This document shows, in pieces, positions 40,040 through 64,000 of a stretch of 64,000 nucleotides of DNA; the stretch's first letter is position 1; each line of letters begins with the position of its first letter. The notes under the pieces were generated by a model. The model saw nothing but the letters and a program-made list of their open reading frames with translations. It made no database searches and had not been told where the DNA came from. A program made the translations under genes and the position numbers. This DNA is from Ophelia neglecta (taxonomy: Eukaryota). Where the stretch lies: assembly GCA_965285935.1 (NCBI GenBank), contig OZ260663.1:112778001-112842000 (forward strand), read 5' to 3'.

Positions 40040-41111
40040 TTACAAGGGAGACTGGAGAAACTAACGCAAAGGGGATACCAACCCAGAACTACAAAACTAC
40101 AAAATGCTAATCAAAAAGGCGTCAGTACTTTGATGGCATCTTTGACATTCAATGAATATATAAGTATTATTTAAAATAACAGTAATTAATACGAGTGTTT
40201 CCTAGATATTTCGACAACGTGTAGTTTCCTGGTTTATTTTGCAAACTGTCTGAATTTGGTATTAAGGGCAATACGTGGAGCTTACTGCTGGCCTCTTAAA
40301 ATACGAATAATTGTATCTTAGTAAAAGGCAAATTATCGGATCAACTTTAGGTAAGGCATTCAGTCCAGGGTGGAACAAAATTTATGATCCATTAAAACGA
40401 TCTGCTCGATGTACACAAGTACCGACAGTGCCAAAATATATGACATTCCTTGTGGAGCACCTACTCAAGCTGACGACGTTGTTCTGCTGACCCAGCAACA
40501 AAAAGGCTTACAGAATCTTTTCAAAATATGCGAGATGCACGCGAGAACTGGGAGATATAACTTTGACCCAACCAAAAGCGCCATCAGAATATTCCACCAT
40601 GTCTCCCATTTAACACGTGCAACAAATATGTTAAGTAACTACGCCAAATCAGAGGACATCATAAAACACGCTGGAATCGATATCGGTGAAACTGGCATTT
40701 ACTTCAAAAACAAAAGCGAACGATGCATGAAGGTCAGAGGAAAATGTAAGCTCTTCTGAAGATAGGCACAACACCATTTACATCGGCCAAACTGTATCCG
40801 ACCACAATGAAAAAAATTAACTTTATGGTTGTCAGCTCTGGTACTCCATGACGGAAGGCACACGGCTACAGATCGAGAGAGCTCACAGGTATTGCGCGAC
40901 ACAATGTTTGCAGCGAAGGACGGGGGCAATTTTGTCGCTTGGCCTTCTCGGATGGCTGTCAACCGAGCAGTACATCCACAAAGAAAAAGAAAGCTTTTTG
41001 GCGGCATATGCCGACTTGGGCCGGAATCTCACCTACATCGTATTTTGTTGACCAAATTTGGTGTTTACAAGTTTTTGTCACAGGCAGAAAAGGGTAGCGG
41101 CTATGCAAATG
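40040..41111 (+). mobile_element. Old LINE RT remnant, left part of the host of the YR element
   Basis: QNANQKG, GLFCKLSEFGIKG, CGAPTQADD; the frame continues at 47876. Confidence 0.75.
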
Positions 41112-42292
41112 ACATTTGCTTAGACTGGCACTTTTTCCACAGATAAAACCAGTTAGCTTAAATAAGGGTAGTTTTTTATTTGGGGAAAGGGCAACGCCGT
41201 AGGATAGAACAAACACAAGTTGATGATGATAATTTATTATTTGGAGCCATTCAAATCACGATCATATACATCAGGAGGAACCCTTTCCTCATCAATAACA
41301 ATATGACATAGTTGGTTTACTCATTATATTGGAAATTGTCAGTACAACAGTAAAACTAGCCATATAATGGAATATCAAAAGTTTCTAGTTACTAATGGTT
41401 AAACCAATAATCAATAATAATTGAAGTAGTAATAACCTAAAATTGGCACCCAAAGTTGGCTATATAGCCATACCACTATTGAAATCTACATGATTTCTCA
41501 ATACAAGGATTTTTAGAAGTTAGAACGAGGCATATACATAGAAATGCAATCCCTGATATTATGACAGAACTTTACGGTCAATATGGACAGTAGAGCATAA
41601 ATTTGACAAGAATGGAGCGCATATAATGTAATTGAACATACGCAGACAGTAATAACTTTCACATACTAGAAATTTAATAATCTGTCCAAGATTTATAATA
41701 AGAGGGTGACTCATTTACTCAGTCAACAAAATGTGCATTTATCCTTCTAGTAGTTAATAAGATGTTTAAATAACATTGAAAGTCAAATTTAAGGGTTATG
41801 GGAGGGTTTTGGGTGAGAGCGTAGCAGTGCGGCTTATCGCTTGGTATGGCGTTGAAAGGACTGAAATGGTCAGCTGACGTCCTATATATAGGTGTCTGGT
41901 GACCAAGAACAATGCCAGACTTATTCGGTTCTTGGAGAAGTCGTTCCAATTGCCATCACGCAAACCTAGTTTTTCACATGTTACAAAACTTACATTTGCT
42001 TAGACTGGCACTTTTTCCACAGATAAAACCAGTTAGCTTAAATAAGGGTAGTTTTTTATTTGGGGAAAGGGCAACGCCGTAGGATAGAACAAACACAAGT
42101 TGATGATGATAATTTATTATTTGGAGCCATTCAAATCACGATCATATACATTAGGAGGAACCCTTTCCTCATCAATAACAATATGACATAGTTGGTTTAC
42201 TCATTATATTGGAAATTGTCAGTACAACAGTAAAACTAGCCAAAATCGGGAGACTGATGATGACCCCAAAAGGCGGTGCCCACAACCAGGAA

Positions 42293-43228
42293 TTACCAGG
42301 TAATATCCCCAGATCTGATATAGGTGTGAAATGCATTAGATTTCCATCTCCCTAGTGATTTGATTTTATAATCATCAAAACCTAATTTTGCAGCAAAACT
42401 AGCCCCGCCTATTCGGAATGAATGAGGTTTATAACGATTTGGGTCGAGACCACAGGACACTACATTTTTCTGTAACATATATTGGAACCAGGACTTGGTT
42501 ACAGGAGTACCATTTTCAAAGATAAATAAGGGGACTGATATGTTTGGCCTGAGTTTTAGATAGTTGATCATGCCTGTGACAGGGCATAAAGGACTAGTAT
42601 TTTGTTTGAGACGGTATGTCGAAATTTGGCCTGGTGAGGAATGTTTGAATGTTGGCAGAGTGACTAACATATTTGTAGTTTCTTTGTCCACTTCAAAGGA
42701 AATGCCTTTCTTTTCTATATTATGGCAAAGCTGTTTTGAGTAAGTAAATTCACTAATTCTAAGAAGGCAGTGGAAGGCTAACATGTACATTGCTTTCAGT
42801 AAAGTCTGATTATAGTTGTTTAGGCCTAAGTGAACAATTGTCTGGCAGAGTTGTAATAGGGTCTCAGGTAAGAAAGGTAATCTGGTATCAGTTGTATTTG
42901 GTTGGTGGTGTTTAATGCCTGCTACAAGTTTCTTTATCATAAAGGATTGTGTAGGATCAGGGAGATCATTGACTTTGTGATGGAAAGCGAGGGCAGATAG
43001 GTGGAGGGAAATTGTAGAAGAACTAAATTTGTGATGCATATGTAAGTAGGTTATATATCTACTTACAGAAAGTGAGGTCATAGGGAATATAGGCGTTTCT
43101 TGCAAGTGGTTGTCTTTTAAGAATTTTGTTGCCTTGTAGATTACTTTTTGATATTGACGTCGTGAACTCTTGGCAAGGGAAAGATCGATGAGTTTGTGCA
43201 TTTGAGAATCGATTTTGGAGACAGCCAA
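42293..43228 (-). CDS. Tyrosine recombinase of the Ngaro-like element
   Basis: LRISE, K, HSFRIG, LGRWKS...Y catalytic residues; overlaps the RT ORF end. Confidence 0.93.
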   Translation of the reverse strand: MAVSKIDSQMHKLIDLSLAKSSRRQYQKVIYKATKFLKDNHLQETPIFPMTSLSVSRYITYLHMHHKFSSSTISLHLSALAFHHKVNDLPDPTQSFMIKKLVAGIKHHQPNTTDTRLPFLPETLLQLCQTIVHLGLNNYNQTLLKAMYMLAFHCLLRISEFTYSKQLCHNIEKKGISFEVDKETTNMLVTLPTFKHSSPGQISTYRLKQNTSPLCPVTGMINYLKLRPNISVPLFIFENGTPVTKSWFQYMLQKNVVSCGLDPNRYKPHSFRIGGASFAAKLGFDDYKIKSLGRWKSNAFHTYIRSGDITW

Positions 43229-44757
43229 CGACTGATTGGAGTTGGGGTTCTGTCGAGCCAGGTCCCTAGTCTCAGCGCTTCTGTTACCTGTAATCGTGAT
43301 AAATGGTCTGGTATAACATTTGTGTAACCTTCAATATATTTTGCCCGGAAATAAATATTGTATTCTATGCTTAGCAGGACTAAATTTCTGATTAGAATCA
43401 TCAGCAAGTTATTGGTGGATGATTGTTTGTTAATTGCTCCTACAATTGAGGTATTATCTGTTAGGAAGAGAACAGAGTGGTTTGCTAATAGAGACCCCCA
43501 TAATTGTAGCCCGACCAATATTGGAAATAATTCCTTCAAAGAGATATGTAATTTTGCCCATGTTGGTGGCCATGAGCCAAAAGTCCACCTTTTTCCTAGT
43601 GTGACCCCAAAACCTTTATTAGAAGCGTCGGAATAAAATTTCAAGGTTGGCGTTGTGACAAAGCTTTGATCAATTAGGAGGGATCTGCCATTATAGTTTT
43701 CCAGGAAATATGTCCAAGCTTGTAAATCGTGTTTTGCATCGGTGGTAATTTTGATAGTTTTATTTTGAGTTCGTTTTATGCCCATTGGGCATTTTCCTGC
43801 TGTAAGGTTATATAGTCTACGTGCAAACGCACGACCTGGAGCTATTACTTTACAGGCAAAGTTGAGAGAACCACAAAGGGATTGAATGTCTTTAAGGCTA
43901 CATGATTCTTGGGTTATTAGGGTATGACATAATATTTTAAGGCGATGTAGTTTTTCTTGTGGCAGTCTGGCTTCAAATTTGACAGTATCAATTTCTATGC
44001 CATGTACAGTGACACATGTGCTAGGATGTACGGTTTTAGAAGATTTAATTGGAATGTTCAAAATGTTACATAAAGCAATGAATTTCTGAAGTTTTTTGTT
44101 GCAATCGATTGAAGCAGGGGGCCCCACGAACATAAAGTCGTCTAAAATATGTGACACCCCAGACATATGGAATTGATATTTCATGATCCATTGAAGTGCA
44201 CAACTGAGTTTTTCAAATATAGCACAAGAAGAGCTTGCCCCCATGGGTAGACTGCAGTCAAAGTAAAAATACCCTTCCCAGGTGAAGCCGAGGAGTTTAT
44301 GGTCATCCGGATGGATAGGTATTATTCTGTAGGCATTTTCAATATCGCATTTGGCCAGTAGGCAATTTCTGCCATATTTTTGGACCATTTTATATATATC
44401 ATCAATTGTCTCATAGGAGACTGAAGAACTTTCAGCTGGGATACCAGTGTTCACGCTGTTGTTTTCCGGAAAGGATAAATCATGGATCATTCTATAGCTA
44501 TCCGAGTCTTTCTTGGGAATGAGGCCTATTGGTGAGCAACAAAGAGTTTGAAAGGGGGGTTCTTTGAATGGACCGGCAATGCGTTCTAGTTTTAACTCAG
44601 AGTTAATTTTTTCTCTAACTTTATCGGGTTTTAATTGTGTGCTTTGATGATTTTTACAACGGTGTGTTAAAGTGGGCCCTTCGTATCCTAATTTGAATCC
44701 CTCTTTGAGGCCATTTACCAGATATTTGCGAGAAGGTGTAGGGTAACCTCGTAACAA
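43141..44757 (-). CDS. DIRS/Ngaro-type reverse transcriptase and RNase H
   Basis: YRMIHDLS, KCDIENAY, LPMGASSS, ILDDF, SDAS, KEL, TDN. The frame opens at about 44866 inside gag (+1) with no nearby ATG. Confidence 0.93.
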   Translation of the reverse strand: MLRGYPTPSRKYLVNGLKEGFKLGYEGPTLTHRCKNHQSTQLKPDKVREKINSELKLERIAGPFKEPPFQTLCCSPIGLIPKKDSDSYRMIHDLSFPENNSVNTGIPAESSSVSYETIDDIYKMVQKYGRNCLLAKCDIENAYRIIPIHPDDHKLLGFTWEGYFYFDCSLPMGASSSCAIFEKLSCALQWIMKYQFHMSGVSHILDDFMFVGPPASIDCNKKLQKFIALCNILNIPIKSSKTVHPSTCVTVHGIEIDTVKFEARLPQEKLHRLKILCHTLITQESCSLKDIQSLCGSLNFACKVIAPGRAFARRLYNLTAGKCPMGIKRTQNKTIKITTDAKHDLQAWTYFLENYNGRSLLIDQSFVTTPTLKFYSDASNKGFGVTLGKRWTFGSWPPTWAKLHISLKELFPILVGLQLWGSLLANHSVLFLTDNTSIVGAINKQSSTNNLLMILIRNLVLLSIEYNIYFRAKYIEGYTNVIPDHLSRLQVTEALRLGTWLDRTPTPISRWLSPKSILKCTNSSIFPLPRVHDVNIKK

Positions 44758-44770
44758 TATGTCTAGCTTA

Positions 44771-46063
44771 TCATGGTTTACTCTTTGGGGGCGATTTTTG
44801 AGACGTGACCCGTGGAGCGGATTTTGGAGGGTTTGGTTTTGTTCCTGTGTTGGTCCGAAAATTGTTTAGATATCCTGGCCTGGTTTGGCAGGTAAATGCT
44901 GGGTGTGGAGATTTACATAAAGCACAAACATGGGCATATGGGCAATTATCCCGGTGGCATTGTTTTTCGTTGAAGTCAAAGCAGGTGCCTGTTACCCTGG
45001 GGGCCCAAAGTTTGGAGCGGTAAGTTCTACGAGGCTGAGAGGTAGTTTGAGGGGGGTAGGTAGTTGGATGGGATTGGTTGATATTTGTGTTGCCATTTAC
45101 TATTGGCCAATAAATTTCCCAACAGTATTGGTCCCAGGGGAGGTCGACGTTAGCTTTAGTTTTTCGAAATCTTTTGTCGTACTCGATCACGCGATGTATC
45201 GAACAGGTTTGAGCTAAATTGTTTATTAACCAGCCGTATTTGGTGAGCCCAGCGAAATCTTGTGGGAAGATATTAGTGTGGAGGCTCATGAAAGTGAAAA
45301 AGGCATCGAACCATTCATGAATGTTAGTGATATATCGCTGCTCCTCGCTTATTTGGATTCTTTTCCCTCTGACTTGGAGATTGAACCTCTCCTCGTCTTC
45401 TTCATTTTTGGTATTGAAAGAGGAGAGCAATTGGGGAAAAGGAATGTATTCTTTTTTAGAAATTTTTTGTTTAATTTTTCTGTCTAATGAGGCTCCCAGT
45501 GGTAGGCTAGATGAGAAGTTGGCAGATTTGATATGGGGAAAATTTGTTAGATTATCAATGGGATAGGTTTCGGAAGGTTTATCAATGTTTTGTCTAGCGA
45601 ACTCTGCCCATGATATATTCATTGGGGAATCTGGAAAGGGTATATCATAATCTCGGACTCCGGCGTCAGCCGCTGTAGCCCCCTGGCTTTCAGCAGGTAA
45701 CCTCGGAGTCCTACTTGTATTCGTGTGCCGATGTACAGTACCATTGTGTTCCATAGGTTGTTGTCGGTCTTTCAGATTCTGGAGTTCGTGCCTTAATGTT
45801 CTGATGTCGTATTGTAGGTCGTTGATCGAGGGTTGATGTGACAGTTCATCAGATAAATCTGTTACATGGTTCTCAATGTCGCAGCCGGAGAATGGGTTTT
45901 GGCTAGTCTTGAGTCTCTTGGGGCGAGGACCGGTGGTGGGAACAACAACAGGTTCGGCGGTTGGTGATGGTTCTGGAGAGATGATTGTGGGTGGTCCCTT
46001 CTTTTTGGCTGGCTTTCTTGATCTTGTTGTTGGCTGTATGTTTTTTTTCTTTCCTCTCGGCAT
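44771..46063 (-). CDS. Gag-like ORF of the Ngaro-like element
   Basis: Basic N-terminus, coiled coil, WFDAF/YDKRFR region, zinc fingers CFDFN..C....C...H-C..C...H....C. Confidence 0.88.
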   Translation of the reverse strand: MPRGKKKNIQPTTRSRKPAKKKGPPTIISPEPSPTAEPVVVPTTGPRPKRLKTSQNPFSGCDIENHVTDLSDELSHQPSINDLQYDIRTLRHELQNLKDRQQPMEHNGTVHRHTNTSRTPRLPAESQGATAADAGVRDYDIPFPDSPMNISWAEFARQNIDKPSETYPIDNLTNFPHIKSANFSSSLPLGASLDRKIKQKISKKEYIPFPQLLSSFNTKNEEDEERFNLQVRGKRIQISEEQRYITNIHEWFDAFFTFMSLHTNIFPQDFAGLTKYGWLINNLAQTCSIHRVIEYDKRFRKTKANVDLPWDQYCWEIYWPIVNGNTNINQSHPTTYPPQTTSQPRRTYRSKLWAPRVTGTCFDFNEKQCHRDNCPYAHVCALCKSPHPAFTCQTRPGYLNNFRTNTGTKPNPPKSAPRVTSQKSPPKSKP

Positions 46064-46412
46064 GGTTATATAATAATGAAATGGATTTTTGTTACGGAAA
46101 GTAATTTGTTCATTGACGTTGGAAAGTGACTAATGGTTGAATAAACACCTTAAGTATCCAGTGATATTTAAACAGTACACGTATGACAGGGAAAAAGAAC
46201 ACACGGCATTTTAAATATATTCTCTTTAGTATTCCCTGCACGTTTGGTACAGATATTCAGTCTGCATATGTCAAAAGGAGAAGAAAAAAAATAATTGTGT
46301 ATGATTACTTATCACATTATTAACAGAGGAATTGATTCTTGTTTTATATTTGAGAAACTAGAGTAATAACGTATAAAAGGTACCTGTGTCAAGACATTGG
46401 AAAATTTTACAG

Positions 46413-46778
46413 AACCCAGACATGTCCGTCTGGAAGATAAGTACCCAGGCATGTACAAGTCTGTCACTGGGAAAACTGATAAAAACCCAGGCATGTATAA
46501 GTCTGTCACTGGGAAAAATTCAAAACCCAGGCATGTACAAGTCTGTCACTGGGAAAAATTTTCAAAACCCAGGCATGTATAAGTCTGTCACTGGGAAAAA
46601 TTTAGAACCCAGGCATGTATAAGTCTGTCACTGGGAAAAAAAATTCAGAACCCAGGCAGGTATAAGTCTGTTACTGGGGAGAAAAAAAGAAAAAAAAAAT
46701 TTTGAACCCAGGCATGTATAAGTCTGTCACTGGGAAAAAAAAATTCAGAACCCAGGCATGTATAAGTCTGTCACTGGG
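46413..46778. repeat. Array of 8 (plus 1 degenerate) 28-bp hairpin units CCCAGGCATGTATAAGTCTGTCACTGGG with A-rich linkers
   Basis: Cores start at 46444, 46486, 46526, 46568, 46608, 46651, 46707 and 46751; CCCAG/CTGGG ends are complementary. Confidence 0.9.
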
Positions 46779-47055
46779 TAGGAAGTCTCGAAACAGGTAC
46801 CAGTAGATCTATATGTTAGTATAGATAATAGTTTGGAAAAATACAACTCTATAGTGTTCGAAGTGAATCCTGAGATGTGTGTAGTATGGGGACGTATATA
46901 AATGAACATGGCTTAGGAATAATGTACATGTAACATTGTTAGCAAACATGTTGTATTCTCCCATGTATCAGCACGTACCGTAATTTGATAGAAGTACAAT
47001 TTACAGAAAGGTGTCGGTATATGTAGATACTTATTAATACCTTACAGTTATAATT

Positions 47056-47661
47056 CTAATTAAGAAAGTGGGATAGTACAGCTCCCCTCAAGCTCCTGTA
47101 TAAAATGTCATTCCCGAAGGTATTTAGGTGAACACCATCGTATGCAACGTATGAGGAGTTGTGGTGTTGGTCAAAATCGTGGTGCCAGTAGTTAATGGAA
47201 CTGCCTGGAAAGTGAGTGGTTATGTACCCTGATTGAAGTGAACACAAAGACTCCATCGAGGTGTTGTATGCCTCGACTGACTGATTATATTGAAAGGGAG
47301 CATATGTGCGGTCCCATAGGCTGCATATAACGACTTTTTCAGCCCCCATATTTAGGATTTCCTTTGATTTGTTAAAGTAAAATTCTGCCAAGATATGTGG
47401 GGCATATAGATACTTGGGTTTGCATAGGTCGTTGGAGCCTAACTGTAATATTACGGATCTGGGCTCCATATGAGCTATGAACGTTAAACACTCCTGTATA
47501 CGGCTAGCCGCCATGCCGCCGTCACCATGTGCGAGTAATGATTTCCCTTTGGTTTGTAAACCAATTTTTAAGTTAAAGTCAGTGCCATATTTTGGCGAAA
47601 CATATTCTTTCAGACGCCTAATATGAGAGGAGCCATATATAAGAATAATATCTTTCTCCAT
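47056..47661 (-). CDS. SGNH/GDSL-family hydrolase (esterase) carried by the YR retrotransposon, 201 aa from ATG 47661
   Basis: Blocks IYGSSH (I), GDGG (II), QLGSNDL (III), DGVHLN (V). The ORF-track start at 47829 is a TTG inside repeat A. Confidence 0.85.
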   Translation of the reverse strand: MEKDIILIYGSSHIRRLKEYVSPKYGTDFNLKIGLQTKGKSLLAHGDGGMAASRIQECLTFIAHMEPRSVILQLGSNDLCKPKYLYAPHILAEFYFNKSKEILNMGAEKVVICSLWDRTYAPFQYNQSVEAYNTSMESLCSLQSGYITTHFPGSSINYWHHDFDQHHNSSYVAYDGVHLNTFGNDILYRSLRGAVLSHFLN

Positions 47662-47751
47662 GGTATACCTGAAGAATAATAATGAACTTACGATGAGAGC
47701 GTAGCAGTGCGGCTTTTCGCTTGGTATGGCGTTGAAAGGACTGAAATGGTC

Positions 47752-47772
47752 AGCTGACGTCCTATATATAGG
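47752..47772 (-). promoter_or_regulatory. Putative promoter in repeat A: palindromic TATA (CCTATATATAGG) beside overlapping E-box/CRE-like CAGCTGACGT
   Basis: Motifs read directly, about 100 bp upstream of the SGNH ATG; also present in A2 (41872-41892). Function is inferred. Confidence 0.45.
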
Positions 47773-47875
47773 TGTCTGGTGACCAAGAACAATGCCAGAC
47801 TTATTCGGTTCTTGGAGAAGTCGTTCCAATTGCCATCACGCAAACCTAGTTTTTCACATGTTACAAAACTTACAT

Positions 47876-48420
47876 ATTACATGTGCTTACCAAATATAGT
47901 CTCAGCAATGTCTATGCAGGGTTACACAGTAACCGGTTAGTTCCCTGATATGGTGACCGCGAAAAATTGGTTGGGATGGTATATGTTGCTCGGAAAGAGT
48001 GCGTCTAGAAGTAGAAATGGAATCAGATCCCAAGTTGCATAGATATCTTAATATAGCCCCAGGCGGGATCATTTAGTTTTCTGTGGGTAATTGCTCGACA
48101 GTGCCAGGAGAGGTGCTATGTGTCCTAGTCAATGGCTAAGCTGGCAAGTTTGCCTTTAACTGACACCTTCCAGGTTTAATAAGAAAGGAAGATGGCTTGG
48201 AATGTTTTAATTTCCCAGAAGAATTAAGTTCCAATAACAAAAGATTAGTCTTCAGTATCTGATCGTAGACATGCTGGGGGAGACCTCCCTAACCAGTTCT
48301 GTCAATAACATTAAAAAGTCACACTTCACGGAGACTCACCTTGGTGGCGCGTAGCAAACCATATGTGGAGTGACTATAGCAGTTGAAGACAGATGTTGTT
48401 TGAGCACTTTCGAAAATTGC
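47876..48420 (+). mobile_element. Continuation of the same LINE after the YR-element insertion
   Basis: Removing 41116-47875 gives the in-frame join GYANDI-LHVLTKYSL. Confidence 0.7.
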
Positions 48421-49524: not shown

Positions 49525-52500
49525 TTATCCGTTGTTACCCGGAATGTTTTCATAAGCGACTGGTCCGGTGGACTGCAGATGCGGCGTGGGTCGTGGAGGA
49601 CAGTGCTCCATTGGTAGATTCAGTTCACCTAAAACACAAATCTTGAATAATGGCAGGATGGGACTGATAGCCGCGAATTGTTTGCTTAACATGAACAAAC
49701 ACTAATTTAGATTACACGCGAGTGGGTTTTAATTACAGCCCCATTAAACAGATAGAACAGCGTAAATATATAATACTATATTCAGCGCCAGTAGTGGGTC
49801 CATGGATTACTGAGGAGAGACCTAGATCTAATGCCTCATACGATGGCTGAACGGTTCGTTGGTTGCTAGACTGTAGTCCAGTGGTCGGCTTCAAATCATT
49901 TCTCCTGTACCTTAAATTGAACAATTTTGATATTAAAAACTATACTTACCATTAAACGATATTGACATTTTCAATTTTTCTGTTAGTTTGTGGAATATCT
50001 CTCTACCTTATCACTATAACTGATAAAACCAGAACAATAGCCAGTGTGATAGCGTTTGCTCCAGCCAGTCCCGCTATCAACCCGGTGTTTAAGGCACTTC
50101 CTTGGCAAACACCACATGGCCCAGGTACCTCGAATGGCGATGTCGTCATCGTAGTTGAAGGGAACGATGTTTTAGGAAATGTTTTTCCAGCTAGAAGAAA
50201 ATACATAAATTATTCAGGACAAACAAGTCTTTCCTTATATGTAATTCACTGATATCTCGCCTATCGGCGTTTCACTTGGTTTAGCATGAAATATTATTAG
50301 TTGCGAGATGGTAATTAGCCCAGACTCTGAGGGGGAGAGAGTAGCGAGGACCCAAGGGAGCATTGGGATTTAGACAAGATTATTCGCTTATTTTTAACCT
50401 GATGATGTTATCACGTTGACCTCAGGGTATTTTCCGCTCCCCTCGTACACCGTGCCATCTGTATACACCCTGTACACAGACACGCCAAACTGGTATCTGG
50501 TCTCAGGCTCCAGTCCTACCACTAACACCTGATGCTTGTCTGTTGTCTGGTGTGTAATGTTCTGCTCTCGGCTCCACTGGTTGTCATTGACCTTTCTGTA
50601 GACTTGGTAGCCAATATACGGAGCCACGTTATCTGAGATGGAGTCTGAGTAATGCCATTCTAGTATAACCGTGGTCGAGCTGGCTGCTGTTCCCGTCACA
50701 CTAGTAATGGCTGTGTTAAGAACTTTATCTGAAAGAGGAAAAGAACATATGTTTGTATTTTACGATTTAGATAAATTACGGCTTTTTCGCCCCTTAAAAT
50801 GGATACAAACATTTCCGGTATTTCTGTGATTTCATGTGGTTAAGAAAGCCCACTTTTAACTATGTGTTCGAGGTCACGTTATATAACGTGCTTCCTCCTA
50901 ACTTACCTATTTGGATGTCACACCTGTCTCCCAGCCACCAAACGTCCTTGTGAACATTAGTGATTTCTTTACATCCGTCGGTACAGACCCCAGACACTCT
51001 ATTACAAGGCGAGTCACTGTCCGGTTTACAATGATCACTGCATCTGGCTTCACAACTCTTCCCATATCAACCAGATGTACAAGCTATAACATATTGACTA
51101 ATTTGATGTTATTGAATATATTATTAATATAAATGATTTTAAAACGTGTAAGGTGTCTTGACAAATTTCTGTCCTATTAACTATTGGAGATTTGATATAA
51201 GAGAGACCCACATCTTGTACAGTTCGGTAGTCTGGTTCCATTAGGACAACTACTGCAGCCATCGTAGTCGTCGCAGGTGGCCGGGGGAGGACAATAGCTG
51301 CAATCTAATAAACATACATGAAAATACATTAATTTGGAGGCAGAATGTTGGTATTGTGGGATGCCCGAGAGGGCAATGACGCAAGCCAGCCGCTCAACCT
51401 ACCATGCCAACAGGAAATGTTCACAACTTTACCAGTTAGCGCTACGGAGCAAATCGTATTATAGTAACTGGCAGAACGTTTTAAAGATAATGGCATCTTC
51501 TTTCTTTCGAGAAATGAAGCGCCCATATTTGACTATGAACTGATTATCTCTAATAACAATTCTAAACAAATGTATCTACATGTCAATAGGAATGAAAAAT
51601 GACCGCCGTGGGCGGGGGGGGGGGGGGGGGGGGTTCGAGTGTACGTGTTAAACTTTTAATTCTGTTGTATTTCTGGCTTTTCAAGTGAATTTGGAAAAGA
51701 ATAAAAATGCTCCTTTATTAACCTGGAATTTTTGTTATTTATTATCGTGTCAGGAAATCATTAGGCATAAATGAAGTCTTAAATTAAAGGCTGGTCTCAA
51801 AATTCTATAACACTGTTCAAAAACCCCCAACCTTGTACTAAAATAAACCAGTAATGAAGCCTAGGTTGCTTTCTATTACTCACCGACATATAATCTCCCA
51901 GTAACTACGAACTCACAGATAGACAAGTAGCGGATTTGATCTGGCGGAGACGTTCTCTCGCTAACATAGGCGACATATCTACCAGTCATAGTAGTTGTAC
52001 AGTTGAGAGTGAGATTCCCACCTCTGGCTACTGGGTCATGTTGCTTTACACATTCCTTACCATTTTTGATATCGGTAGTGTTACTGACAGTTATCCGAAA
52101 CTTAGACATCCTAACTACAAATGTAATAATATTGCATTGAGATCCCGATTCAAGGCCACATGAATAGCCATTAAAAAAGTTGAAATGTTGAAATATATTT
52201 ACATACCAAACACTACGTGATCCACATTAAACAGGGTTACACTGTAGATCACGTGGGCAGTTCCCAGGTCCACATACCACCAGGCGGCGCTGGGGTCACT
52301 GGAGGATAGGTTACCGGGATGAGCACAATGATTTAGGTCAGGATTTGTGTCACCGTCGACAGCCAAACCAGCTGTTGCCGGTCTACTCCCACGTAATAGC
52401 CAAGTCCCTTTCTGGTAGGCATTCTGACGGAAGGCGACGTTACCTGGAATAGTGATTCCACAAGTGAGATGAGAAAAGAAGCTTTTTATATTAATCACAC

Positions 52501-55500
52501 ACCATACATACCTGATTAGTTAGGGCTTTTCGTTTCATCAATGTATCGATTAATCGAATCGCTTGGCTTCCAGCTATTTATATGAATACGATAAGCTATA
52601 TTTCCGATAGTTTGTAAGTAATACATAGCCTCTTTGTTATGCAAACCTAGATATCTGGGTTCAATAGCTGAAAGCGTCACCACTTGATGCATATCAGCTA
52701 ATCAACAATGGTATCTGTTTGTTTGTTAAACTACTTAGCCCGTCAATCTAACCTTTTATTTAAAGAATTTTCTGTCTGAAAAATACATAGCCTCTTTGAT
52801 ATGCAAACCCAGATCTCTTGGTTCAATAGCTGAAAGCGTCACCACTTGATGCATATCAGCTAATCAACAATGGTATCTGTGTGTTTGTTAAACTACTTAG
52901 CCCGTCAATCCAACCTTTTATTTAAAGAATTTTCTGTCTGAAAAATCTCTGAATATCAGTCAGTATATATAAAGCCACAGACAAGAGAACGGCTAGTAAA
53001 TGTAATTTGATGGAAATTGCTGTCTACCCCGGATTGGCCATTGATCACGAACTGATCAGAAGTCAAATCCCGTGCACCACACAATTCATGTATCCTCTAT
53101 TGCCTTTACCGTAACAGCCCTACTGTTTATTTAATTTGTAATTACATGTATTAGCTACATTGTATAAATACAGAGCTTTACGACCAGACGGCTCACATCA
53201 CAATCTCTTACCAATCCGACATCCATGTCCGTGCCATCTGTGTTCTTTGCCACGGGGTTCGCCATCTAAACAAGAACCGTTATTAAGACATGTCCCGTTA
53301 TCAGGGTCACAGCCGTCGGAACATCTACAGGAGAACGCCGCGCCCTGGGTGACGTCACCATAGCGATCTACAGCTAGGACAAAAATAATATCTTGGTATG
53401 ATACTCTATATTATGGCCACCCTAGAGCATATTTCTTCTCTGTCCTACGTTATATTTATGTTAACCCCCCCCCCCCCTCCTCAAAGACACCCCCAATCCC
53501 AAACATAACCATCCTAGCCAGCCCCTACAGTCAGGTTTTCTTTCCCCTCAGAGACGCAACAACGAAATTATTAACATTAGTCTGTCACTGCAAGGCACAA
53601 GATAATATAATCTCCAGCACGAGGCTGGCGAGACTACTAGCGAGAGTGTCATTTGACCTTATGATTAAGCAACTTACAGCAGAACATGCGGAGTGTAAAT
53701 AAATCCGAGGCTCAGAATGTCGCATCTTAATATGTTAATATAAATATATTACCAATCGCGTCCCTGGAATCGGAGCAAACAAGTTCAGACTGAAAACGAA
53801 AATAAAAACAAGAAGCAAGTACCCAATCAAATAACTAAGCTTACAAAGCTGGTCCGTCCTTAATCTTGTCTTGACAATAAATAACTTTAACAAGGGTGCG
53901 CTGTGGTTGCCGAAATTCGTCATCAATGCCTTAAACTACCTCCCACAAGAAGAGTTCTGATCAAGGCTAACTTCAAAATAAACAGGGCAAGGATGCACAG
54001 AACACCCTGCACCATACTGCTATTAATGATTAGCCAGCACTATTAACCCTTGCTGAATTAAATATGCCAGTAATGCAGAAATCATTTTATACAATATAAT
54101 AAAATAATAAACGGTATTATGTATGTAAAATATAATAAATTCTGACTCTCACTGTTGCCGTGAAAAATTGGCAGTAACAGCCACGTTATGATGTTTCCTA
54201 CTCTTAAGAACAACACTGCTGCATGGCTTCATGCACTGATCTGCAACGCATTTATAGGCCTACAGGTTTTTTCGAAAAATATACATATAATTTGTATATA
54301 TTTATGTGTAGGTGTGTGGCAAAAGACGATGCCTCTATTAATTTATTATATTTATCCCAGTACTAAGAACATTCGGGAGCAGCAGTGTCTTTATCAAGGC
54401 CAGTCTGTTTTTTCATTACCTTCGTACATCAGATGAAGATCAGTGCAAATATCATATTAGGTACTTGCAGTAACAGGTCCTTATTTACAGGTATTGGGAA
54501 GGAATGTGTGGATCATGTGGCCCAAATACAGGTTACGACCTAGTCGATCTATTTACTGCTCTTACTATCCACACCCTCTTGACGGTAGGGACAGTCAGTA
54601 GTTATTTTAACCAGTCCAACGTTATTTATATTTTAAGAGAATGTTTATTATTTAAGGATCGCCTGAATGACTGATGTTATATTCCCCAGCTACTGTATGG
54701 TAAACACTCAAGTTAACTGAACCATACCATCCCTGGCCTGACGTTAATAAGACGCCTTCCCCTGTTATCTGTTTACTTTTACTGTAAATCAGAACTGCTG
54801 CGCGTGTAGAGAAATGTCCTTCACGACATTTTACTTCTAAAACACATTTTCCAGTTGTTCAAATGTAATTGGTTTACAGTATATTTTAGGGCAATCGTCA
54901 CGCATCTCCCATTCTATTACGTTAATGTACATAAAATAAGAACACGTCAATTCAAGTATGTTTATCTTAGCTCCACCTCCAGGTTAGATTTTCTAAAGTC
55001 GCATTTCTCAATGTGTAGTCGTCACTTTCATTGGTTGGATATTTATAACCAAAAATTAGGAATATAAAGTGTCACTGATGCAAAAATATTTGAACACAAG
55101 AGTCAGATCAACTGTATGGAAATGACCTACATATTATGATGACGATTAGACATGTACGTATCGCCTGACATTATAAGGTGCATATGATGTATTATTATTC
55201 AACTGACAAAATAGAATACACACATTGCATATATACGTCAGTACCAGCTGTCAGATCATTTATATATATTGACAGCTCCTCCCGGATGATGTTGCCATAA
55301 CGGTTTACAGCTAAGGCCAGTACGTATTATATACTGGACAAACAAGTCAAATAATAACTAAAATCCTTAAGTCTGCAGTACCTCTTGAATAGTTTAAGTC
55401 AGAGAACAATATATCAAGACAATCATCTCTCACTTCCCTTCAGAGATCTTAAACAACAGTTATATATTTCTTGAGACAGTGTCTTCTCAAGACCGTGATG

Positions 55501-61436: not shown

Positions 61437-62299
61437 GTGCAAAGAAAGGAGCTCCAGTTCCAGCAAAGGGTAAACCAGGTCCCAAAAAGGAGGTGGCGCC
61501 GGCGGTGCCCAAGTGGACCCCCCAAGATGAGGCCGCCCGGAAAATACAAACAGGCATTCGGGGCTTCCTGGCCCGCAAGGCACTGGAAAAACAGAAAAAG
61601 GAGAAAGAGGAGTACGAGGCCCTGATGGACAGACTGGAGAAAGAGGTTAGAATCTCCTTATACATGGAGGGAGGGCTGATACAGGGGGGGGGGGGGTAAG
61701 GGGGGAGGGGGGGGGGGGGGGGCTTGGTCTCTAGGAGGGAGAGGACTATGGGGCCCTGATGGACAGACTGGGGAAAAAGGTAAGAATCTCCTTAAACATG
61801 GAGGAGGCTGATTCAGGGGGGTAAGGGGGGGGGGCTTTGTCTCTAGGAGGGGGAGGAATATGAGGCCTTGATGGATAGACTGGAGAAAGAGGTAAGAATC
61901 TCCTTAAACATGGAGGGGGCTGATACAGGGGGATAAGGGGGGGGGGGGCTTGGTCTCTAGGAGGGAGAGGACTATGAGGCCCTAATGGACAGACTGGGGA
62001 AAGAGCTTCAAATCAATTTAAACACTGGGGGGCTTATCCAATGGGGGGAGGGGGTATGGTCATTAACAGCCCCCCTCCCCCTTCTCCTCCCTCCCCTCTA
62101 GTTGTACATGTATATTTGTTTCTATCATTAACAGGCCTTTGTACACCTGGTGAAGCTGGAGCAGGAGGTGGCAGAGAAGCAGAGACTGAAGGAGGAAGAA
62201 GAGAGGAGGAGGAAGAAGGAAGAAGCAAAGAGGAAAAAAATAGTCCTAGAAGCGGCGTTTGACGGGGACATTAATGAAATCCAAAACGTCCTTAGGGAG
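61437..62299 (+). CDS. IQANK1: IQ motif and ankyrin repeat domain-containing protein 1-like, two internal exons (61437-61645, 62135-62299); gene continues beyond the window
   Basis: IQ motif AARKIQTGIRGFLARK, coiled coil, then LEAAFDGDINEIQNVLRE resembling the IQANK1 LDAAFDGD..EI.AVLKE segment (recalled, not searched). GT-AG boundaries in frame. Confidence 0.8.
61646..62005 (+). repeat. Three tandem copies, about 112-134 bp, of the exon 3' end plus intron start
   Basis: gaggactatg...ctgatggacagactgg..aaagag at 61735, 61847 and 61961. Confidence 0.88.
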
Positions 62300-64000
62300 G
62301 TAGGCTAAAAAGGCAGGGTACCTACTTAAAACCAGAACCCTAACCCCCAACACCCTGAGGGAGGTAGGCTACAAAGGCAGAGTACCTACTTAAAACAGAA
62401 CCCTTACCCCCAACACCCTGAGGGAGGTAGGCTACAAAGGTAGGGTACCTACTTAAAACCAGAACCCTAACCCCCAACACCCTGAGGGAGGTAGGCTACA
62501 AATGCAGGGTACCTACTTAAAACAGAACCCTAACCCCCAACACCCTGAGGGAGGTAGGCTACAAAGGCAGGGTACCTACTTAAAACCAGAACCCTAACCA
62601 CCAACACCCTGAGGGAGGTAGGCTACAAAGGCAGGGTACCTACTTAAAACCAGAACCATAACCCCCAACACCCTGAGGGAGGTAGGCTACAAAGGCAGGG
62701 TACCTACTTAAAACCAGAACGCTAACCCCCAACACCCTGAGGGAGGTAGGCTACAAAGGTAGGGTACCTACTTAAAACAGAACCCTAACCCCCAACACCC
62801 TGAGGGAGGTAGGCTACAAAGGTAGGGTACCTACTTAAAACAGAACCATAACCCCCAACACCCTGAGGGAGGTAGGCTACAAAGGTAGGGTACCTACTTA
62901 AAACCAAAACCCTAACCCCAAACACCCTGAGGGAGGTAGGCTACAAAGGTAGGGTACCTACTTAAAACAGAACCCTAAGCCCCAACACACTGAGGGAGGT
63001 AGGCTACAAAGGTAGGGTACCTACTTCAAACCAGAACCCTAACCCCCAACACCCTGAGGGAGGTAGGCTACAAAGGCAGGGTACCTACTTAAAACCAGAA
63101 CCATAACCCCCAACACCCTGAGGGAGGTAGGCTACAAAGGCAGGGTACCTACTTAAAACCAGAACCCTAACCCCCAACACCCTGAGGGAGGTAGGCTACA
63201 AAGGCAGGGTACCTACTTAAAACCAGAACCCTAACCCCCAACACCCTGAGGGAGGTAGGCTACAAAGGCAGGGTACCTACTTAAAACCAGAACCATAACC
63301 CCCAACACCCTGAGGGAGGTAGGCTACGAAGGCAGGGTACCTACTTAAAACAGAACCATAACCCCCAACACCCTGAGGGAGGTAGGCTACAAAGGCAGGG
63401 TACCTACTTAAAACAGAACCCTAACCCCCAACACCTTGAGGGAGGTAGGCTACAACGGTAGGGTACCTACTTAAAACAGAACCATAACCCCCAACACATT
63501 CTGAGGGAGGTAGGCTACAAAGGCAGGGTACCTACTTAAAACCAGATCCCTAACCTCCAACACCCTGAGGGAGGTAGGCTACAAAGGTAGGGTACCTACT
63601 TAAAACAGAACCATAACCCCCAACACCCTGAGGGAGGTAGGCTACAAAGGCAGGGTACCTACTTAAAACCAGAACCCTGACCCCCAACACCCTGAGGGAG
63701 GTAGGCTACAAAGGTAGGGTACCTACTTAAAACAGAACCCTAACCCCCAACACCCTGAGGGAGGTAGGCTACAAAGGCAGGGTACCTACTTAAACCAGAA
63801 CCCTAACCCCCAACACCCTGAGGGAGGTAGGCTACAAAGGTAGGGTACCTACTTAAAACAGAACCATAACCCCCAACACCCTGAGGGAGGTAGGCTACAA
63901 AGGCAGGGTACCTACTTAAAACAGAACCATAACCCCCAACACCCTGAGGGAGGTAGGCTACAAAGGTAGGGTACCTACTGAAAACCAGAACCTTAACCCC
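62294..64000. repeat. 63-64 bp satellite, about 27 copies, running off the window
   Basis: Unit gagggaggtaggctacaaaggYagggtacctacttaaaac(c)agaaccctaacccccaacaccct. Confidence 0.97.

Follow-up and report, generated by a model that had tools for sequence, protein, structure and literature searches.

The 64,000-nucleotide (nt) stretch of the Ophelia neglecta genome analysed here (GenBank assembly GCA_965285935.1, contig OZ260663.1, positions 112,778,001 to 112,842,000; hereafter the window) contains a tyrosine recombinase (YR) retrotransposon in which a gene for a stand-alone SGNH/GDSL hydrolase precedes gag. The genes and repeats of this element are read from the minus strand. Its 5' end is formed by the split direct repeat A1 (47694..47875), which matches repeat A2 at 99% and contains a TATA-like box, TATATATA, read from the sequence at 47763-47770. 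A predicted leader splice donor, ATC/GTAAGT (47686..47691), is located 2 nt past A1 and 30 nt 5' of the hydrolase ATG. The hydrolase open reading frame (ORF; 47056..47661; 201 amino acids; ATG at 47661, stop at 47058-47056) begins 32 nt past A1 and ends 995 nt 5' of the gag ATG (46063), in keeping with a first-pass annotation of the sequence, which had located it directly after A1 and about 1 kb before gag and whose coordinates hold. The predicted intron also contains a family-specific tandem array of 8 copies of a ~42-nt unit (46426..46784, no strand assigned), and a predicted gag splice acceptor site (46076..46095) lies 12 nt 5' of the gag ATG. The gag-like ORF (44771..46063, 430 amino acids) has a basic N-terminus and a Cys/His cluster near the C-terminus, and no Pfam match was obtained for it. 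It is followed by a reverse transcriptase (RT)/RNase H (RH) ORF of 574 amino acids from stop to stop (43141..44865), in the +1 frame relative to gag, and by a YR ORF of 345 amino acids, also from stop to stop (42293..43330). The 3' part consists of repeat B1 (41987..42242), repeat A2 (41814..41995), a 451-nt A2-B2 spacer (41363..41813) with similar counterparts in sister copies and other families, and repeat B2 (41107..41362), which matches B1 at 99% and forms the 3' end. The circle junction is predicted where B1 meets A2.

By structural criteria, this element is a Ngaro-like YR retrotransposon. Split repeats and the absence of a methyltransferase characterize Ngaro elements (PMC4157794, PMC9210276; these and the other papers are cited from excerpts of their text), and the window element has split direct repeats in the order A1 ... 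B1 A2 B2 with both pairs at 99%, and gag-like, RT/RH and YR ORFs that overlap on one strand. The RT ORF stops after RH, and no methyltransferase domain was detected behind it with Pfam at E<=0.1, which sets the element apart from the PAT-like group. It also differs from the amphibian-type hydrolase Ngaro elements, in which SGNH follows YR, because its SGNH gene precedes gag. In all five copies of the window family, the element ends share only a short core of 2-4 nt with the target, and the target is not duplicated over any greater length. In another sample, contigs span the empty site, where 4 letters are shared, and lack the whole element, and thus the window insertion is polymorphic and recent. 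As a separate observation, a C-rich tract opens the A2-B2 spacer in most families (window 41813-41790, minus strand); it is found after A2 but not after A1 and might be a priming or termination signal.

The window hydrolase has no internal stop and contains blocks I (Ser), II (Gly), III (Asn) and V (Asp-x-x-His), represented by GSSH (Ser12), Gly46/Gly49, GSND (Asn77) and DGVH (Asp175/His178). Pfam Lipase_GDSL matches the protein past the family cut-off (E=1.2e-6). Its AlphaFold2 model has a predicted local distance difference test score (pLDDT) of 86.8 and the five-stranded alpha/beta arrangement of the SGNH fold; the best structural match of this predicted model is a GDSL lipase (Z 17.8, root-mean-square deviation (rmsd) 2.5, 173 aligned residues), and the fold also matches that of Oskar OSK (Z 13.5, rmsd 2.8, 159 aligned). 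In the model, the fold begins at residue 5, which leaves no space for a signal peptide or a coiled coil. A profile search of the PDB retrieved GDSL enzymes, and 4C1B (ZfL2-1) was absent among the matches listed. ORF, blocks, Pfam match and model bear out the intact 201-amino-acid SGNH hydrolase that had been proposed at first pass.

Searching the O. neglecta genome with the protein yielded 63 matches among 99 candidates. The window family comprises five copies at 97-100% identity, and many further matches are found at 22-32%. Loci, which carry L-numbers (e.g. L130) as labels in this analysis, were fetched for 60 of the 61 other SGNH places, for 40 sites picked by YR and for 30 more, and 131 were scored. 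SGNH is located upstream of gag, RT or YR in 90 of the 118 loci with core genes, which is not a frequency because 60 of the 131 loci were chosen by SGNH, while 28 loci lack SGNH. Of the 40 loci picked by YR, 21 contain a clear SGNH upstream and a further one contains a weak fragment; SGNH follows its own YR in none of them. The 28 SGNH-less loci include 11 that form a divergent group with gag directly behind A1 and another 11 in which BLAST recognized relatives of SGNH families that are truncated, fragmentary or affected by deletions; the other 6 were placed in neither group. In metagenome contigs, many of them redundant, 349 stretches encode an SGNH relative, and in the best 80 that were kept, SGNH comes first in all 54 loci with core genes. 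No SGNH gene behind its own YR was present in the 118 genomic and 54 metagenomic loci, the sole apparent case being two elements in tandem; likewise, no Ngaro element with a 3' hydrolase was found in 20 further GDSL loci out of 107 matches in the O. neglecta genome, where 131 of 627 YR candidates were scored. The 5'-SGNH arrangement is therefore real and conserved, and in at least two hosts it is the rule for an entire clade. Copies of the window family and of other families retain the ORF. The view of the first-pass annotation that the layout stands apart is correct with respect to the Ngaro elements in the excerpts of PMC9210276, but the window element is not unique. A profile search with SGNH returned another 109 proteins; most are ~185-200 amino acids long, and almost none has a name. 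Look-alikes in a protein atlas belong to eukaryotic clusters, in which Cnidaria, Mollusca or Annelida are commonest, although these are few records and leads only. In viral contigs, one weak and unrelated match to the SGNH hydrolase was obtained.

Clustering of the intact SGNH ORFs at 80% identity gave 36 clusters, here called families, of which 21 are from O. neglecta and 15 are metagenomic. The families share ~25-30% identity, but the catalytic Ser is retained in 34 and the D-x-x-H motif in 35 of the 36. In a quick, unrooted and midpoint-drawn RT/RH tree of 31 fetched elements, which contains no named Ngaro, PAT or DIRS references, 24 5'-SGNH elements separate from 7 SGNH-less ones (SH-like approximate likelihood ratio test (SH-aLRT) support of 99), and the metagenome elements group together (support 97). 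In 22 families, SGNH and RT distances correlate with r=0.92, and SGNH recovers 12 of the 14 supported RT splits without strong conflict. Synonymous sites are saturated between families; in five unsaturated SGNH pairs (dS 0.48-1.3), the ratio of nonsynonymous to synonymous substitution rates (dN/dS) is 0.08-0.19, which indicates purifying selection, and two comparable pairs give 0.14 and 0.07 for YR. Between near-identical copies, which differ by few changes, SGNH dN/dS ranges from 0.16 to 0.94. Co-inheritance with RT together with purifying selection suggests that the SGNH gene was most likely gained once at the 5' position and has been kept under selection since.

The spacer between the SGNH stop and gag measures 0.3-1.1 kb across families. 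The first-pass annotation had regarded a promoter-proximal hydrolase ORF followed by a hairpin array as a different architecture. The separate, conserved SGNH ORF 5' of gag upholds the first part of this claim, whereas the array does not belong to it: of 22 family spacers, only 5 contain an array according to Tandem Repeats Finder, and folding of the window array is not significant (z -1.5; one unit at -8.9 versus a shuffle mean of -5.7 with a standard deviation of 1.95). The hairpin array was therefore rejected as the functional core and is incidental to the architecture.

What the first-pass annotation had overlooked is a conserved pair of donor and acceptor signals, which places the ORF in a probable leader intron. 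The start of gag was assignable in 22 of the 36 families. In 16 of these, an AG ends 1-2 nt 5' of the gag ATG, compared to 11 of 238 spacer ATGs and to none of 22 SGNH ATGs. Because 32 of the 36 families have a purine at position -3 of the SGNH ATG, the latter comparison controls for Kozak context. The pyrimidine fraction ahead of the gag AG is 0.70 versus 0.57 in the spacer and is higher in 20 of 22 families, and a stricter YAG acceptor rule is satisfied at 12 of 21 gag ATGs versus 21 of 218 background ATGs. On the donor side, AGGCAAGT is present within 200 nt 5' of the SGNH ATG in 14 of the 15 metagenome families (shuffle mean 0.0, maximum 1), and G[TC]A[AC]GT within the same distance in 15 of the 21 O. 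neglecta families (shuffle mean 3.0, maximum 8). ATGs are depleted from the leader, with 12 observed and 52 expected in 30 families. In the SGNH-less elements, gag is located close behind A1, and none of the 6 with an identified gag start has such a donor. In the window family, the acceptor AG is present in four sister copies, 12 nt 5' of the gag ATG. The alternative that SGNH itself is spliced in by an alternative acceptor was rejected: the acceptor rule applies to 4 of 21 SGNH ATGs versus 21 of 218 background ATGs, and in the window the intron would be merely 23 nt long.

Based on these signals, we consider it likely that the SGNH gene resides in a retainable 5'-leader intron, with the unspliced RNA serving as the message for the hydrolase and the spliced RNA as the message for Gag. 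In this scheme, which is read from DNA with regard to transcription start, splicing and translation, transcription would likely start in A1, and the full-length RNA, which would also be the template for new copies, would be scanned first to the hydrolase ATG. A weak donor ~30-110 nt 5' of this ATG, often of the GC or GTACGT type, would at times be skipped. When used, it would be joined to the acceptor 1-12 nt 5' of the gag ATG, excising the hydrolase gene together with the spacer; in the window family, the intron would be ~1.6 kb long and would include the whole SGNH gene. Splicing efficiency would thereby set the ratio of hydrolase to Gag. Without splicing, scanning to gag would be blocked because a first ORF and 0.3-1.1 kb of spacer precede it.

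Several observations weigh against the leader intron or against the active enzyme that it would encode. A strict GTRAGT donor is present in only 7 of the 21 O. neglecta and 2 of the 15 metagenome families, and 6 of the 21 lack even the wider hexamer. The donor patterns were picked after inspecting the sequences, the families share ancestry so that their counts are not fully independent, and a gag start was found for no more than 22 of the 36 families. The acceptor AG is missing from the window copy (46076) although this is a recent, polymorphic insertion; the site must have changed at or after insertion, or this copy must have moved with help in trans. Furthermore, a search of six families revealed no genomic copy in which leader donor and gag acceptor are joined. 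With respect to the protein, the block III Asn is replaced in 8 of the 36 families, all in one subclade, and was not located in another, and the window enzyme is neutral (isoelectric point 7.2), unlike most of its relatives.

The missing leader-spliced copies would imply either that the spliced RNA is excluded from packaging or that the splice is rare or absent. A packaging signal within the leader intron, as in retroviruses, would provide for the former. Elsewhere in the element, GT-AG-bounded deletions were found in 2 of 73 junction rows, many of them redundant (L130 exact, L099 with one mismatch), together with one weak GC-AG-bounded deletion among 25 further junctions; such genomic deletions suggest that element RNAs can be spliced and then copied back. 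Seven candidates for leader-spliced copies (L115, L225-L227, L237, L253 and L254) proved to be ordinary deletions, truncations or fragments. No splice joint was present in the contigs of one sample (three runs, with even flank cover), which has no bearing on expression. Separately, a CAG after a pyrimidine-rich run coincides with the D-x-x-S-R-x-Q motif at the RH C-terminus (window ~43290, minus strand) in 26 of 27 motif-bearing elements; the motif was not found in 4 of 31 elements. This CAG is located ~90-100 nt ahead of the YR domain within the YR open frame, and the lead of many YR frames is devoid of ATGs. Splicing may also give access to YR, in SGNH-less elements as well.

Other schemes of expression have to be weighed against a retainable leader intron. 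If the element had two promoters, the hydrolase and the genomic RNA would be expressed from A1 and gag/pol from an internal promoter located in the spacer, with the AG before gag acting as initiation context. A TATA-like stretch ~150 nt 5' of the window gag ATG, the AG missing from the window copy and the lack of leader-spliced genomic copies in six families are all consistent with this, but a pyrimidine tract with an AG at a fixed 1-2 nt would not be expected for an initiation context, as it is missing at the SGNH ATG of equally strong Kozak context, and the conserved donor upstream of SGNH would be left without a role; we consider two promoters unlikely. The donor and acceptor would keep their roles if the hydrolase was translated not from full-length genomic RNA but from a short RNA that is cut and polyadenylated within the same intron. 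Such an RNA would escape the decay to which messages with very long 3' UTRs (untranslated regions) are subject, and AATAAA/ATTAAA hexamers number 20 in the spacers versus 12.7 expected. However, 9 of 22 spacers have no hexamer, including those of the window family and of 6 of 8 metagenome families, which makes this variant quite unlikely. In a reading close to that of the first-pass annotation, every gene could be translated from a single unspliced RNA if ribosomes reinitiated, shunted or entered internally, and the array would act as a structured element in translation. The 0.3-1.1 kb spacer and the arrays of some families would suit this idea, but arrays with no significant folding in only 5 of 22 families, the 238 ATGs within the examined spacers and the unexplained splice signals render it very improbable.

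A further alternative concerns only the function of the protein. The SGNH domain could be a non-catalytic RNA- or membrane-binding module comparable to Oskar OSK, in line with the OSK fold match (Z 13.5) and with a net positive charge of the protein in 32 of the 36 families. The ZfL2-1 esterase hydrolyses esters and binds anionic liposomes, and as this binding is independent of its active site (PMC3905857), a binding role is conceivable here as well. Retention of Ser and Asp/His in 34 and 35 of the 36 families at ~25-30% identity argues against a non-catalytic role, which we regard as rather unlikely; the hydrolase is probably an active, soluble esterase. By analogy to ZfL2-1, our best guess is that it is an esterase directed at lipids or membranes, and whether it would act on lipids or membranes where particles assemble appears evenly balanced to us.

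Various derivatives of these elements are present in the O. neglecta genome. Mini-elements with the structure A1-SGNH-B1-A2-B2 that lack gag, RT and YR (L082:2507-4592, L084:2470-4543, L233) differ in their breakpoints and were seen as single copies. L231 and L232 are remnants of the window family (88-92%) that retain a solo A-spacer-B2 unit, which recombination between A1 and A2 would be expected to leave behind, similar to solo LTRs (long terminal repeats). In L113 and L116, and in L067, L075, L076, L078, L085 and L089, SGNH is kept while most of RT is deleted; several copies have identical breakpoints and therefore moved in trans. Split-repeat YR elements that lack SGNH are found at L119-L130; their gag and pol share one frame, which a single stop interrupts with possible readthrough, and one gag of this group contains a CCCH finger. 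L255-L259 represent a multicopy unit with an ORF of up to 1928 amino acids (DUF6589 and a weak OTU match). Behind this ORF lies a different SGNH ORF, whose ATG is preceded by an acceptor-like stretch; the profiles used gave no RT or YR match in the unit. At L247 and L042/L111, YR elements of the 5'-SGNH clade are arranged head-to-tail, so that the SGNH of one is located just behind the YR of another, which is a possible route between the 5' and 3' hydrolase layouts. The window element is flanked by decayed multicopy sequence (40388-41106 and 47876-48400) with RT-like remnants that we take to be LINE-like (from long interspersed nuclear elements). Minus-strand exons at 49956-52519 presumably encode host fibronectin type III and F-type lectin domains, and a 63-64-nt satellite array of 27+ copies occupies 62202-64000.

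As a free-standing protein of ~200 amino acids with its own start codon, the hydrolase described here can be expressed and assayed as such, and the predicted leader-gag junction is exact and testable in any host. The multicopy, unnamed ~190-amino-acid GDSL proteins of invertebrate assemblies would also be explained as transposon genes. If the leader intron is real, Gag would be made from spliced RNA and supplied in trans to a genomic RNA that first encodes something else, which is unusual among retroelements.

In the Ngaro elements treated in PMC9210276, the hydrolase comes after YR, in agreement with the first-pass annotation, and has no proven function; its function in YR retrotransposons is also called unproven or unknown in PMC6681497, and the excerpts of PMC6681497 and PMC7192593 mention the hydrolase without giving its position. 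The literature searched contained no description of a hydrolase 5' of gag in YR elements, and there was nothing on such an arrangement in the excerpts of PMC3783388, PMC2632668, PMC12440569 and PMC7599744; Goodwin & Poulter 2004, Poulter & Butler 2015, the supplements of PMC9210276 and Repbase/Dfam were outside this search. As the clade is so common, it is quite possible, if somewhat short of an even chance, that the 5' layout already appears in some repeat-library annotation, and less likely that the splicing scheme has been described. Close relatives by structure are DIRS-53_XT and DIRS-54_XT of Xenopus, which share the A1..B1 A2 B2 repeats, the overlapping gag, RT/RH and YR, the lack of a methyltransferase and the extra SGNH ORF (PMC9210276). 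In these elements, the hydrolase follows YR and all ORFs overlap, whereas here it is the first ORF, has its own ATG, lies without overlap 0.3-1.1 kb before gag and is located between a predicted donor and acceptor; in addition, a spacer splits A2 from B2. The conserved donor before the hydrolase ATG and the acceptor before the gag ATG are, as predicted sites, what appears to be new.

The esterase ORF1p of CR1/L2/RTEX elements such as ZfL2-1 resembles the hydrolase in its SGNH fold, its intact catalytic residues, its position 5' of RT and its mostly basic character, but it is a domain of a gag-like protein with a coiled coil (PMC3905857), in contrast to the bare protein of ~190-215 amino acids, which the YR elements described here encode in addition to a distinct gag. 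Searching for longer SGNH forms yielded one match, which lacks the last catalytic block and is weak evidence. In the bdelloid Vesta LTR/Athena elements, a stand-alone GDSL esterase of putative function was likewise captured as an accessory gene, ORF3, but in the env-like third position of LTR elements and not before gag (PMC5408684). Accessory ORFs can precede gag in other retroelements, as is the case for the extra ORFs of Ogre elements and for orf C of walleye dermal sarcoma virus. Extra ORFs of Ogre are mentioned in PMC6431247. A further comparison is to retroviruses and errantiviruses, in which env is made from a spliced subgenomic RNA (PMC12992720). Like these, the 5'-SGNH elements would use one promoter and a partly used 5' donor to divide genomic from spliced RNA, but the roles would be inverted, with the accessory gene expressed from unspliced and Gag from spliced RNA. 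In its broadest form, this would describe an old, animal-wide and undescribed YR clade in which the esterase is translated from the genomic RNA, spliced and unpackaged RNAs are the sole source of Gag and likely of Pol and YR, and a conserved weak donor of the GC type tunes the ratio; we propose this tentatively and lean slightly against it. If it were true, and given that other Ngaro elements carry a 3' hydrolase, the same enzyme would have been kept under two opposite splicing solutions and would thus be needed at a set dose for retrotransposition.
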